Shown here: positions 3,361 through 57,130 of the stretch, one piece after another
Layout: each line of letters starts with the position of its first letter
How positions within the stretch are numbered: position 1 is the stretch's first letter
NCBI RefSeq assembly: GCF_988243305.1
Contig: NZ_OZ547136.1
Reading direction: 5' to 3' (one strand)
Length of the DNA stretch: 64,000 nt
Position numbers and translations under genes: made by a program
The notes under the pieces: model-generated
What the model saw: the letters and a program-made list of their open reading frames with translations, nothing else
The model's database searches: none
What the model was told of the DNA's origin: nothing

Positions 3361-4161
3361 ATGGAGATTACCACTCTTCAAATTGTGCTGGTATTTATCG
3401 TAGCCTGTATCGCAGGTATGGGATCAATCCTCGATGAATTTCAGTTTCACCGTCCGCTAATCGCGTGTACCCTGGTGGGTATCGTTCTTGGCGATATGAA
3501 AACCGGTATTATTATCGGTGGTACGCTGGAAATGATCGCGCTGGGCTGGATGAACATCGGTGCTGCAGTTGCGCCTGACGCCGCTCTGGCTTCCATCATT
3601 TCTACCATTCTGGTTATCGCAGGTCATCAGAGCATTGGTGCAGGTATTGCACTGGCAATCCCTCTGGCCGCTGCGGGCCAGGTACTGACCATCATCGTTC
3701 GTACTATTACCGTTGCTTTCCAGCACGCTGCGGATAAGGCTGCTGATAACGGCAACCTGACAGCGATTTCCTGGATCCACGTTTCTTCTCTGTTCCTGCA
3801 AGCAATGCGTGTGGCTATTCCGGCCGTCATCGTTGCGCTGTCTGTTGGTACCAGCGAAGTACAGAACATGCTGAACGCGATTCCGGAAGTGGTGACCAAT
3901 GGTCTGAATATCGCCGGTGGCATGATCGTGGTGGTTGGTTATGCGATGGTTATCAACATGATGCGTGCTGGCTACCTGATGCCGTTCTTCTACCTCGGCT
4001 TCGTAACCGCAGCATTCACCAACTTTAACCTGGTTGCTCTGGGTGTGATTGGTACTGTTATGGCAGTGCTCTACATCCAACTTAGCCCGAAATACAACCG
4101 CGTAGCCGGTGCGCCTGCTCAGGCAGCTGGTAACAACGATCTCGATAACGAACTGGACTAA
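3361..4161 (+). CDS. manY: PTS mannose-specific EIIC component
   Basis: 266-aa polytopic membrane protein directly downstream of manX. Confidence 0.97.
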   Translation: MEITTLQIVLVFIVACIAGMGSILDEFQFHRPLIACTLVGIVLGDMKTGIIIGGTLEMIALGWMNIGAAVAPDAALASIISTILVIAGHQSIGAGIALAIPLAAAGQVLTIIVRTITVAFQHAADKAADNGNLTAISWIHVSSLFLQAMRVAIPAVIVALSVGTSEVQNMLNAIPEVVTNGLNIAGGMIVVVGYAMVINMMRAGYLMPFFYLGFVTAAFTNFNLVALGVIGTVMAVLYIQLSPKYNRVAGAPAQAAGNNDLDNELD

Positions 4162-30980: not shown

Positions 30981-31087
30981 GCGCGGATATCGAATGTTAT
31001 GCAGACAGAGAAAATCAGCCTGCTCAAATGGCTGTGCGGTTCTGGATAGCCCGAAATAGTCAACTTCAGGCTATCCAGAGAGCGGAA

Positions 31088-31747
31088 TTATTCCGCCAAA
31101 GTGCGTTTTTGTTGTTCGAGATCGCGTTCAATGCCTTCACGAACGTCCTGGGGGATTTTCAGCGCGTCACCCAGTGCATTCAGGTAACTGCGTTCCATAA
31201 AATGGTCAATATCAATAGCCGCGCAGCTCAGGAAATAGATTTCCAGCGCCTCTTCTTCATTGCGGATCCCGGTAGCCAGGCGTTGTGGATCCAGCGGTTG
31301 TTCGATTGCCTGCTCAATGAGTACACGCCCCTGTTCTTCCACACCGGCTTCACGCAATTGCTGATCGATTGCCGCACGTTCTTTGGCATCAATATGACCA
31401 TCACTTTTAGCGGCAAAGACCAGCGCAAGGATCAAACGTTCCGTACGCTCATCCAGCGGCGTACTTTGCGCGCCAAACTGCGGTTCGTCCTGATGCGCCG
31501 CGCGAATTTTATCTTTGTATTTATTCCACAGCACCGTACCCGCTACCGCTCCGCCGCCAACCAGTAACGCGTTGGTGCCATATTTCGTAAGAAGTTTACG
31601 TGCTGATTTATTTGCGACCAGCAGCCCAGCCAGTCCGCCTAATGCGCCTGGCACTAAAAGTTTGCCCAATCCCTGATCCGCAGACGAGGAGGCAGAAGAA
31701 CTGCTTTGCCCAAGCAAGGATTGCAGTTGATTTAACCAGTTAGCCAT
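31088..31747 (-). CDS. yebE: DUF533 inner membrane protein YebE
   Basis: 219-aa ORF; synteny. Confidence 0.9.
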
Positions 31748-32804: not shown

Positions 32805-32824
32805 AACTGTGATTTTATACAGTA
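32805..32824 (-). promoter_or_regulatory. LexA (SOS) box of yebG
   Basis: Minus strand reads TACTGTATAAAATCACAGTT, a CTGT-N8-ACAG box. Confidence 0.85.
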
Positions 32825-48067: not shown

Positions 48068-48087
48068 TGCTGGATAGATATCCAGCG
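48068..48087 (-). promoter_or_regulatory. LexA (SOS) box of the ruvAB operon
   Basis: Minus strand reads CGCTGGATATCTATCCAGCA, the known CTGG-N8-CCAG variant box upstream of ruvA. Confidence 0.85.
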
Positions 48088-54885: not shown

Positions 54886-54997
54886 AAATCACTAAAGAAC
54901 GCCCAAGAGCATGTTTTTTATTTAGAAGAATCAAAGCGTTGTATTTCCATGTCATATAAAAATCGGCAAAGTTCATATGTAACAAAGTGTCCCAATC

Positions 54998-55046
54998 ATG
55001 CCCCAAAATGCCCCACAACAAATATTTTTGCCCCATGCATGCCCCA
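54998..55046 (+). repeat. Four direct repeats of (A)TGCCCCA in the prophage arm
   Basis: atgcccca at 54998, 55008, 55039 and tgcccca at 55029. Confidence 0.6.
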
Positions 55047-55067
55047 AAAAATCACTTTCCTTCACCC

Positions 55068-55119
55068 TTGACACTGTTTATCCATACAGTTAAAAATGAT
55101 ACTGTATACAAACACAGTG
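55068..55119 (+). promoter_or_regulatory. Promoter with two tandem LexA boxes upstream of the dinI-like gene
   Basis: TTGACA at 55068-55073; CTGT-N8-ACAG boxes at 55072-55091 (cactgtttatccatacagtt) and 55100-55119 (tactgtatacaaacacagtg); RBS agaggg before the ATG. Confidence 0.75.
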
Positions 55120-55132
55120 TAGAGGGACTTTT

Positions 55133-55381
55133 ATGCGTATTGAAATCTGCATAGCCAAAGAAAAAATGACTAAAATGCCAACCGGTGCTGTGGATGCGTT
55201 AAAGGAAGAATTAACTCGGCGCATCAGTAAGCGTTATGACGATGTAGAAGTGATCGTAAAAGCCACCAGCAATGATGGGCTTTCTGTTACACGCACAGCA
55301 GATAAGGATTCTGCAAAAACATTTGTTCAGGAGACTCTGAAAGATACCTGGGAGTCTGCTGACGAGTGGTTTGTTCACTAA
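55133..55381 (+). CDS. DinI-family DNA-damage-inducible protein (prophage-encoded)
   Basis: 82-aa [12 protein letters not shown]...[11 protein letters not shown] resembling E. coli DinI (MRIEVTIAK...TWESADDWFV). Confidence 0.85.
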
Positions 55382-55449
55382 TAAACACGTAAAATCGGTA
55401 ACGGCTGGAAATCATTCAATACTCGCACTATCGAAAGTTCACCAGCCAA

Positions 55450-55495
55450 CCGCAGCACGTCCTGCATACGTCGTGTCTGCGGTTTTTCTTTTTCG
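55450..55495 (+). terminator. Hairpin and T-run downstream of the dinI-like gene
   Basis: ccgcagcacgtcctgcatacgtcgtgtctgcgg followed by tttttctttttcg. Confidence 0.55.
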
Positions 55496-55496
55496 C

Positions 55497-55766
55497 TTAC
55501 ATTGTGTCTGGTTCTTCCGGCCACTCAATATCAGGTGCAGTTGATGTATCAACACGGTTCAGCAACACCCGATATTTATTCCATGCCTCCAGCAACGATC
55601 TTTCTTCCTCCGTTGCGATTTCCAGATCTACAGCATCCTGCAGTGGCGCAATATACTCACTGAATTCCTGGATGTAGAACTGTGTGGTGACGGTCTTCCA
55701 GCCATTCGGCTCCTGCTGTATCGAAGCATACCAGGCTATTTCAATATCGCTATGCTGCGGCAGCAT
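55497..55766 (-). pseudogene. Tail fiber assembly protein remnant (C-terminal Tfa domain with unrelated N-terminus)
   Basis: C-terminal about 50 aa ([45 protein letters not shown]) near-identical to the full tfa at 56546-57130; about 150 bp of DNA is a direct repeat of the tfa 3' end. Confidence 0.7.
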
Positions 55767-55822: not shown

Positions 55823-56491
55823 ATGGTGAAATCAATGAAAAAAAACACAGATGATGGGGCTAAAATTTACACACCACTTACCCTAAAGCTTTATGACTGG
55901 TGGGTTTTGGGAGTATCAAATCGGCTTGCATGGGGATGTCCTACAAAGGAACACCTTCTTCCACACTTTCTGGAACATTTAGGTAACAACCATCTGGATA
56001 TTGGTGTTGGAACTGGGTTTTATCTTACTCACGTACCTGAGAGTAGTCTGATATCTTTAATGGATTTGAACGAAGCTAGCCTGAACGCGGCATCTACAAG
56101 GGCTGGGGAATCAAAAATTAAACATAAAATTAGCCATGATGTTTTTGAACCTTATCCCGCGGCGTTACATGGTCAATTTGATTCCATTTCCATGTTTTAC
56201 CTTCTTCACTGCCTGCCTGGAAATATATCTACAAAAAGCTGTGTAATACGCAATGCGGCGCAGGCCTTAACTGACGATGGAACTCTATACGGAGCCACAA
56301 TTCTTGGCGATGGAGTTGTGCACAATAGCTTCGGTCAAAAACTGATGCGCATTTACAATCAGAAAGGCATCTTTTCAAACACAAAAGATTCCGAAGAAGG
56401 CTTAACACATATACTCTCAGAGCATTTCGAGAATGTTAAAACCAAGGTTCAAGGTACTGTAGTAATGTTTTCCGCTTCAGGGAAAAAATAG
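55823..56491 (+). CDS. Class I SAM-dependent methyltransferase of unknown specificity (prophage moron); start may be the ATG at 55835
   Basis: 222-aa ORF with Rossmann motif I (LDIGVGTGFY), acidic post-I residue (LMDLNE) and motif II-like FDSISMFYLLHCLP; no DNA-methyltransferase motifs (DPPY or PC dipeptide); local composition visibly AT-rich. Confidence 0.8.
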   Translation: MVKSMKKNTDDGAKIYTPLTLKLYDWWVLGVSNRLAWGCPTKEHLLPHFLEHLGNNHLDIGVGTGFYLTHVPESSLISLMDLNEASLNAASTRAGESKIKHKISHDVFEPYPAALHGQFDSISMFYLLHCLPGNISTKSCVIRNAAQALTDDGTLYGATILGDGVVHNSFGQKLMRIYNQKGIFSNTKDSEEGLTHILSEHFENVKTKVQGTVVMFSASGKK

Positions 56492-56499
56492 CATCCAAC

Positions 56500-56535
56500 C
56501 GCAGCACGTTCTTGCTTAAGACGTGCTGCGGCATA
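56500..56535 (-). terminator. Hairpin terminator downstream of tfa
   Basis: Perfect 11-bp stem ccgcagcacgt / acgtgctgcgg with a T-run on the minus strand. Confidence 0.6.
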
Positions 56536-56545
56536 ATCCCAATGA

Positions 56546-57130
56546 TTACTCACTGACAGGGTTCGTAGGCCACTCAATATCAGGTGCAGTTGATGTATCA
56601 ACACGGTTCAGCAACACCCGATACTTCTTCCAGGCTTCCAGCAACGAGTTTTCTTCCTCCGTTGCGATTTCCAGATCTGCAGCATCCTGAAGCGGCGCAA
56701 TATGCTCACTGGCTACCTGCATCAGGTTGTTTTTTGTTTCTTCCGCCTCCCGGATCCGGAACAGTTTTTCTGCTTCCGTATCCTTCACCCAGGCTGTGCC
56801 GTTCCACTTCTGAAACTCCCCTTCCGGCGATAACCAGGTAACATTTTCCGGTAACGGACCGAGTTCAGAAATAAATAACGCGTCGCCGGAAGCCACGTCA
56901 TAAACCGTTTTACCCCGATGGTCTTCAAAGAGATGCCACGATGACTCATCACTGTTGAAAACAGCCACGAAGCCAGCAGGAATATCTGGTGGTGCAATAT
57001 CGGTACTGTTTGCTGGCAGACCTGTATGAGGCGGAATATATGCGTCACCTTCACCAATAAATTCATTAGTTCCGGCCAGCAGATTATAAATTTTTATGGT
57101 CCGTGGTTGTTCACTCATTCTGAATGCCAT
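56546..57130 (-). CDS. tfa: Tail fiber assembly protein Tfa
   Basis: 194-aa ORF overlapping the stf stop by 1 nt; matches lambdoid Tfa. Confidence 0.92.

Follow-up and report, generated by a model that had tools for sequence, protein, structure and literature searches.

A prophage-borne gene for an 82-amino-acid (82-aa) DinI-like protein, preceded by a near-consensus promoter that is overlaid by two LexA operators, lies at positions 55068 to 55381 of a 64,000-nucleotide (nt) stretch of contig NZ_OZ547136.1 (NCBI RefSeq assembly GCF_988243305.1), referred to below as the window. We put at about 85% the probability that this segment and its 3' untranslated region form a self-contained SOS-inducible accessory cassette, or moron, in which a LexA-repressed promoter would drive a DinI paralogue that is predicted to occupy the RecA filament groove and might damp or delay late cleavage. 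The original prediction had described a DinI homologue of a prophage behind a consensus -35 and two tandem CTGT-N8-ACAG boxes, one of them over the promoter spacer. All of these promoter elements were found in place, the homologue aligned with the DinI family by profiles, solved chains and predicted fold, and the prophage location was confirmed by a junction in yecE that is followed by phage genes.

The promoter scan paired the TTGACA hexamer with an AAAAAT -10 (Table 1), a combination with 10 of 12 consensus matches, and with this pairing box 1 takes up the spacer and shares two bases with the 3' end of the -35. Box 2 follows the -10 and precedes the Shine-Dalgarno sequence, where it covers the point near 55104 at which transcription is expected to start. 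The cores read from the sequence are CTGTTTATCCATACAG for box 1 and CTGTATACAAACACAG for box 2. The two boxes are separated by 28 bp from centre to centre and end 41 nt (box 1) and 13 nt (box 2) before the ATG. The LexA boxes of this near-consensus promoter are placed so as to occlude it. The promoter-operator region (55065-55090 / 55101-55126) also forms an imperfect palindrome of 26 nt with the -10 at its centre; in its outer arms, CCCT, upstream of the -35, is paired with AGAGGG from the ribosome-binding site. On the strand opposite to the dinI-like gene, the operator region has a weak match to a promoter.

Table 1. Features of the dinI-like cassette, with the prophage junction and the other LexA sites scored in the window (HI, heterology index; ORF, open reading frame).
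Feature	Position	Strand	Basis and remarks
Approximate prophage/chromosome junction	54870	.	end of homology to uninterrupted yecE
-35 hexamer TTGACA (consensus)	55068-55073	+	sequence reading and promoter scan
LexA box 1, CACTGTTTATCCATACAGTT	55072-55091	.	HI 6.3; core CTGT-N8-ACAG at 55074-55089
-10 hexamer AAAAAT	55092-55097	+	promoter scan; 18-nt spacer from -35
LexA box 2, TACTGTATACAAACACAGTG	55100-55119	.	HI 6.6; core at 55102-55117
Shine-Dalgarno GAGGG	55122-55126	+	sequence reading; 6 nt before ATG; kept in homologous upstream regions
DinI-like coding sequence, 82 aa and stop	55133-55381	+	ORF list, profile and structure matches
Conserved two-hairpin element, about 100 nt	55388-55489	+	fold z=-3.4; covariance model R1, 114 bits
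Hairpin 1, stem	55403-55408/55442-55447		invariant apical sequence CAUUCAAUACUCGCACUAUCGAA
Hairpin 2	55448-55484		loop UUCUUGCAUACGAC
Intrinsic terminator, hairpin 2 then UUUUUCUUUUU (55485-55495)	55448-55495	+	RNA folding
yebG box	32805-32824		HI 6.6; known operator, internal positive control
ruvA box (ruvAB operator)	48068-48087		HI 7.3; known operator, internal positive control
Next best site in window			HI 12.7

CTGT-N8-ACAG was matched at three places in the 64-kb window, where 0.70 would be expected; besides boxes 1 and 2, it is found in the known operator of the proven SOS gene yebG. For scoring, 18 published LexA sites of E. coli were taken from a table in PMC3009722 and turned into a heterology-index matrix; this training set includes the yebG and ruvA sites and excludes boxes 1 and 2. 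Since this matrix differs from the Lewis 1994 matrix, its absolute values are not comparable with published indices. The matrix scoring that had been suggested as a check placed both boxes in the range of the yebG and ruvA operators and of the known sites, for which the mean leave-one-out index was 7.5. Of 300 windows simulated with a first-order Markov model to match the dinucleotide composition, none contained a site with an index of 8 or less, and sites at 10 or less arose at a frequency of 0.05 per simulated window.

We also compared the upstream regions of 78 loci, which comprised 34 distinct sequences and were aligned without difficulty. Invariant positions were TT in the -35, CTG and CA in box 1, AAA and the last T in the -10 (AAANAT among the homologues) and CAG in box 2; the variable positions were located in the interiors of the boxes and in the segment between them. 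Two sites with an index of 10.5 or less were recovered in 30 of the 34 regions and a single site in the other four, none being without a site, and the position of the boxes relative to the -35, the -10 and the ATG was fixed. The order TTGACA, box, TAAANAT, box and Shine-Dalgarno sequence is kept in modules from Salmonella, Enterobacter and Citrobacter, the proteins of which show 67-76% amino acid identity, with boxes that differ in sequence (for example CTGTATAAATAACCAG and CTGTATATCCAACCAG) at unchanged positions and with a spacing of 27-28 bp. A minority of lineages, in both E. coli and Citrobacter (loci L084, L090 and L099), have a decayed box 2. Two LexA boxes are also present in the MsgA-like clade, and one box each was found in Gifsy-2, in a Gifsy-like Klebsiella phage, in Klebsiella phage P12620-1 and at the chromosomal dinI.

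The encoded protein corresponds to RefSeq WP_001217553.1, named 'DinI-like family protein'. It matched all 63 positions of the Pfam DinI model PF06183 (E=1.4e-19), positions 71-149 of the 151 in PHROG 189, 'RecA filament binding protein DinI' (E=5.7e-31), and, over the full length in a phmmer search, the solved DinI chains 1GHH/7YWA (E=3.7e-13). An AlphaFold model (pLDDT 78) has the order beta-alpha-beta-beta-alpha, and 1GHH and 7YWA were the sole significant PDB matches to this model in Foldseek (TM 0.77). The modelled structure is an alpha/beta fold of about 80 residues with a C-terminal acidic helix, like that of solved DinI. The identity to K-12 DinI is 47%, and the score against the NCBIfam DinI equivalog NF007893 was 73 bits, below the cut-off of 111, which indicates a paralogue rather than an orthologue of chromosomal DinI.

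In the cryo-electron microscopy structure of DinI on RecA, the pocket for RecA F203 is formed by L13, L21, W71, W77 and F78 and an acidic patch of E24, E69 and D76 contacts RecA, and mutating these residues impairs filament stabilisation (PMC9926225). The aligned counterparts in the DinI-like protein are M15, L23, W73, W79 and F80 for the pocket and E26, D71 and E78 for the patch, so that by alignment all eight predicted RecA-contact residues are retained or conservatively replaced.

The left 54.8 kb belong to the E. coli chromosome (ruvAB, ruvC, nudB, aspS, yecD), and the point where homology with uninterrupted yecE stops places the cassette about 200 bp inside the prophage end. Rightward of the cassette are a fragment of a tail-fibre-assembly (tfa) gene, a methyltransferase gene, a full tfa and a gene for an 898-aa tail fibre, all phage-like, and it is the tail-fibre, Lom and J genes that follow this junction side of the prophage. 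The dinI-like gene is convergent with the late tail-fibre genes, opposite to tfa. Strain AR_0372 has a 471-bp stretch across the junction that matches the window at 100% identity, and the strain encodes the same DinI-like protein. The element in that strain is a lambdoid prophage of about 48 kb in yecE, with Q, lambda-like head and tail genes, the integrase at the far end and a gene for an S24 'LexA family' repressor of the CI type.

Similarity with mEp460, cdtI, 2H10, CP-1639, VT1-Sakai and many Stx1 and Stx2 phages starts at the -35 and spans the gene, and the boundary of homology lies a few bases upstream of the -35 whatever precedes the cassette. In mEp460 the cassette promoter abuts the integrase stop codon and is annotated, and further copies border prfC, a yehU-type kinase gene, ssrA or yecD at the ends of prophages. 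No dinI-like gene was found at the equivalent place in HK106 or lambda, of which HK106 has the 3' element there. Its own promoter and terminator, its opposite orientation and its presence or absence among phages identify the cassette as a classic moron, at the tail-fibre and attachment (att) end of a lambdoid prophage in yecE. The cassette was carried by 1,824 of 5,426 complete E. coli genomes, about one in three, at 3,423 places in total and with up to 7 copies per genome, Stx1 and Stx2 phages being among the carriers.

Between the yecE junction and the dinI-like promoter there are five TG(C/T)CCCA repeats (54988-55049), which are probably integrase arm-type binding sites. The same motif was seen near attR in JLK-2012, in Stx2_14040 and in the Citrobacter loci.

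From the sequence and its conservation we infer that in an undamaged cell two LexA dimers would sit on the operators, one in the spacer between -35 and -10 and one over the start, and would jointly block RNA polymerase. Upon DNA damage, RecA filaments would trigger the self-cleavage of LexA and the promoter would fire irrespective of the prophage's own repressor, as the Gifsy prophages suggest, giving a short monocistronic mRNA that should end at the terminator. The 82-aa product would bind in the groove of the RecA filament, to judge from the conservation of the contact residues in 7YWA. Like DinI, it would be expected to stabilise the filament and to compete with groove clients such as UmuD, LexA and S24 repressors of the CI type, including a repressor like that of the AR_0372 prophage. 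Each such prophage would thereby add to the SOS-induced DinI dose of the cell, and the net effect most consistent with DinI biochemistry would be a damping or delay of late RecA-dependent UmuD processing and prophage repressor cleavage.

The gene had been expected to be silent in the lysogen and induced by SOS. The index values, the two sites in 30 of 34 upstream regions and the Gifsy precedent all agree with a LexA-occluded promoter, while 'silent' is too strong since LexA-repressed genes have basal and heterogeneous expression. SOS induction of the cassette itself is expected by analogy: the dinI homologues of Gifsy-1, -2 and -3 are LexA-regulated (PMC3121763), and the Gifsy homologues rise 4.6- to 23-fold with nalidixic acid (PMC8072944, table 1). 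In an array study, the dinI-like gene c0943 of CFT073, possibly a copy of this cassette, was grouped with sulA, umuD and recN (PMC2817434).

Several points weigh against a LexA-controlled RecA modulator. The AAAAAT hexamer appears to be a weak -10 and the transcription start near 55104 is a prediction, and the regulatory claims for this cassette are all drawn from sequence. The immunity region of the window's own prophage falls outside the window. As a DinI paralogue, the protein could differ from DinI in its activity on RecA, and in the diverged homologue of JLK-2012 an arginine replaces the tryptophan of the RecA pocket (W73), so that RecA binding may not be needed by every copy. DinI acts oppositely at low and high concentration, and the direction of any effect on prophage induction is therefore not predictable. 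Lastly, non-polar deletions of the Gifsy dinI homologues left induction unchanged (PMC3121763).

The predicted transcript also contains a conserved structure downstream of the gene. The intrinsic terminator starts 67 nt past the dinI-like stop codon and was missed by a simple terminator scanner because the stem is bulged; it was revealed by RNA folding. It shares hairpin 2 with the two-hairpin element of Table 1, the apical sequence and loop of which recur in the Salmonella, Enterobacter and Citrobacter modules with stems that change compensatorily. A pattern scan of viral contigs for the element gave at least 120 stretches, and we analysed 80 listed loci, in which copies with and without a DinI-family ORF were classified by hidden Markov models. 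At 55 of the 80 listed loci the element followed a DinI-family ORF at a fixed distance, with a spacing from the stop codon of 34 nt in the 82-aa clade and 53 nt in the distant 80-aa MsgA-like clade. An association with tfa rather than dinI was considered and rejected, as a tfa like that of the window lay within 1.5 kb in 24 of 78 copies, compared with the 55 of 80 for a DinI-family ORF.

For covariation we used 68 distinct sequences, in which 96% of the cells were paired. Double-change cells numbered 76, against 26 in shuffles; none of 500 shuffles reached as high a value and slid controls were far lower. The apical sequence was fixed by the search pattern, while the covarying stems were free. 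With model R1, the element was detected downstream of the DinI-like genes in the window, in mEp460, CFT073 and Stx2_14040 and in the loci from Salmonella, Enterobacter and Citrobacter, and none was detected after other E. coli DinI-like variants, Gifsy-2, K-12 dinI or the Klebsiella and Yersinia phage homologues. Among species-representative genomes the element is restricted to Enterobacteriaceae, probable contaminants aside, and the S. enterica representative lacks the exact motif. A degenerate copy was seen at 56481-56538 of the window.

A scan of the cassette against Rfam at E<=1 gave no match in the promoter, the coding sequence or the 3' untranslated region, and scans of eight other element-bearing loci returned no IsrC. 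The invariant 23-mer of the element was found in no searchable paper, whether as DNA, as RNA or as the reverse complement. At one Citrobacter sedlakii locus (L236, 3374-3453, minus strand) there was a sub-threshold match to CssrB, a Shigella small RNA (40.8 bits, E=5e-5), which adjoins the copy of the element on the opposite strand and is a lead, not an identification.

The element could be a functional RNA of enterobacterial prophages that is switched on by LexA cleavage, either as a small RNA made from the 3' untranslated region or as a duplex-forming target of convergent late transcripts, an idea that we regard as speculative and rather unlikely. If it is true, SOS would bring the cell a RecA modulator and an RNA regulator from one cassette, and prophage load, at up to 7 copies per genome, would set the dose of the two. 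A stronger form, in which the RNA is the key product and the protein is secondary, we consider quite improbable. According to this explanation, the element would be set free from the mRNA that SOS induces and become a regulatory small RNA, as is the case with DinR, which is cut out of the 3' end of Klebsiella pneumoniae dinI mRNA (PMC10907235), or would pair with convergent late or antisense transcripts in the manner of IsrC, a Salmonella small RNA convergent with msgA, the two causing mutual degradation (PMC2330248).

Such a role for the RNA would fit the covariation, the fixed distance from two divergent DinI-family clades, a conservation higher than that of the coding sequences that precede the element, the two precedents and the CssrB match beside the Citrobacter copy. 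However, about 20 of the 80 listed copies are without a DinI-family ORF upstream, including those of lambda (between ea31 and ea47) and HK106 (between attP and tfa), and only 25 of 78 copies have a T-rich (U-rich) tail. The strand signals conflict: G.U pairs outnumber A.C pairs 54 to 23 on the dinI-sense strand, which favours the sense strand, whereas the opposite strand folds more stably in 62 of the 68 sequences. Pairing with the E. coli ftsZ leader was no better than for dinucleotide shuffles (fraction at least as good 0.65-0.78), and a DinR-like targeting of ftsZ was rejected on these duplex energies. Moreover, the dinI-like ORF is intact, with evident conservation at the protein level in thousands of genomes.

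We hold it to be very improbable that the cassette belongs to a LexA-controlled antirepressor module that switches the prophage on, like the dinI-gfoA/gftA-irsA operon of Gifsy or Tum of coliphage 186. Tum is an antirepressor-DinI fusion (PMC3121763), and PHROG 189 places the DinI-like protein with longer, 151-position members, but the match to that profile is confined to the DinI half and a fusion of the Tum type was rejected because the 82 residues make up that half only. A Gifsy-type operon was likewise rejected, as there is no credible ORF before the terminator; the sole same-strand candidate downstream, a 57-codon ORF with a TTG start, crosses the terminator and is not plausible. Furthermore, the Gifsy-2 DinI is 42.5% identical and is encoded near replication genes, not at an att end, and the related AR_0372 prophage, having a cleavable S24 repressor, has no need of an antirepressor.

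The least probable alternative, that the boxes are relics or serve a leftward promoter or integration and excision at the nearby att arm, with a gene that is constitutive or dead, could appeal to the palindrome and the weak opposite-strand match, to the location within about 200 bp of the att junction beside the TG(C/T)CCCA repeats and to the decay of box 2 in some lineages, but the boxes travel with the gene and not with att (the mEp460 cassette starts at the integrase stop, others lie at prfC, the yehU-type kinase gene and ssrA), their position against -35, -10 and ATG is fixed and the opposite-strand site is not conserved.

Some observations concern the neighbouring genes. An ORF for a class-I S-adenosylmethionine-dependent methyltransferase (55823-56491, plus strand; PHROG 2132) sits between the 3' fragment of tfa and the full tfa and has on either side a 155-nt direct repeat (55519-55673 and 56568-56722), the two copies being 91% identical. 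It is missing from related prophages, which indicates a second moron. The single hit of the Rfam scan, to IS009 at 55540-55743 on the minus strand, scored 115.4 bits, just under the gathering score of 117, and is located inside the tail-fibre-assembly gene fragment, so that the 'RNA family' overlaps coding sequence here. In the AR_0372 yecE prophage a third strong LexA box (HI 4.8; 31083-31102 of locus L107) was found where a gene for a phage DNA methyltransferase begins, in a region whose counterpart falls outside the window. In three Salmonella loci (L093-L095), the DinI-like gene at 1501-1749 is followed about 370 nt later, from 2116 and on the same strand, by a gene for a bacteriocin of the cloacin/pyocin-S type, which has its own LexA-like box (HI 8.7 at L093:2063). 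Three Citrobacter loci (L099-L101) have a DinI-like cassette at the same yecD/yecE site, followed by a gene for an fljA-like flagellin repressor and a flagellin gene instead of tail-fibre genes.

LexA-controlled dinI homologues of prophages have been published for Gifsy-1/2/3, PhiKO2 and Serratia OS31, and this kind of gene is therefore already known. The differences from the published kind are modest, namely two operators instead of one, no downstream antirepressor and the placement at the att end. For the original prediction taken by itself, little changes. The internal controls and the comparative evidence would place a very common E. coli prophage cassette in the host SOS regulon, and SOS-inducing antibiotics would then raise DinI-type activity in proportion to prophage load. 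Since DinI-type proteins share the RecA surface that drives the cleavage of LexA, UmuD and phage repressors, the cassette could affect mutagenesis and the induction threshold of Shiga toxin (Stx) phages.

Compared with K-12 dinI (b1061), the cassette gene is alike in fold, length, RecA-contact residues, predicted LexA control and a monocistronic layout with its own terminator. The chromosomal gene has a single LexA box that overlaps the -10 and lies 19 nt from the ATG, whereas the two boxes of the cassette flank the -10, and the cassette is prophage-borne and multi-copy, with a longer 3' untranslated region that contains the two-hairpin element absent from K-12 dinI. The genes of Gifsy-1, -2 and -3 are likewise prophage members of the DinI family that are directly repressed by LexA and induced by damage (PMC3121763; PMC8072944), as we infer for the cassette. 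They are about 42% identical to it, have a single box 19 nt from the ATG and come first in an operon with an antirepressor gene and irsA near the replication genes, whereas the cassette gene is monocistronic and located at the att and tail-fibre end.

The dinI-like genes of PhiKO2/N15-type phages and of Serratia OS31 are closer in placement, beside and opposite to a tail-fibre gene with a LexA box about 14 nt before the start (PMC7556043). A single box was reported for them, and the OS31 gene is translationally coupled to a second ORF (PMC7556043). The Klebsiella and Yersinia phage homologues examined do not have the 3' element. The same cassette, with a protein that is 93-100% identical, is represented by H0001 of VT1-Sakai, mEp460_021, cdtI gp30, the 'dinI' of Stx1 and Stx2 phages and WP_001217553.1; we found no account of LexA control or a double operator for this E. 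coli cassette in the searchable literature, which is itself incomplete.

Like the cassette, the prophage copies of the MsgA-like 80-aa clade have a pair of LexA boxes and, 53 nt past the stop codon, the 3' element; the proteins they encode are distant in sequence from the 82-aa protein. Salmonella msgA is damage-induced and has a LexA box (PMC8072944). The DinR system resembles the cassette in that a LexA-controlled dinI mRNA has an extended, lineage-specific 3' region with regulatory potential, and differs in that the element of the cassette shows no better-than-chance pairing with ftsZ and is not confined to dinI transcripts. We treat DinR, the IsrC/msgA pair and the CssrB match as leads, not identifications, for this conserved 3' element, which is the sole part of the cassette that might represent new biology.

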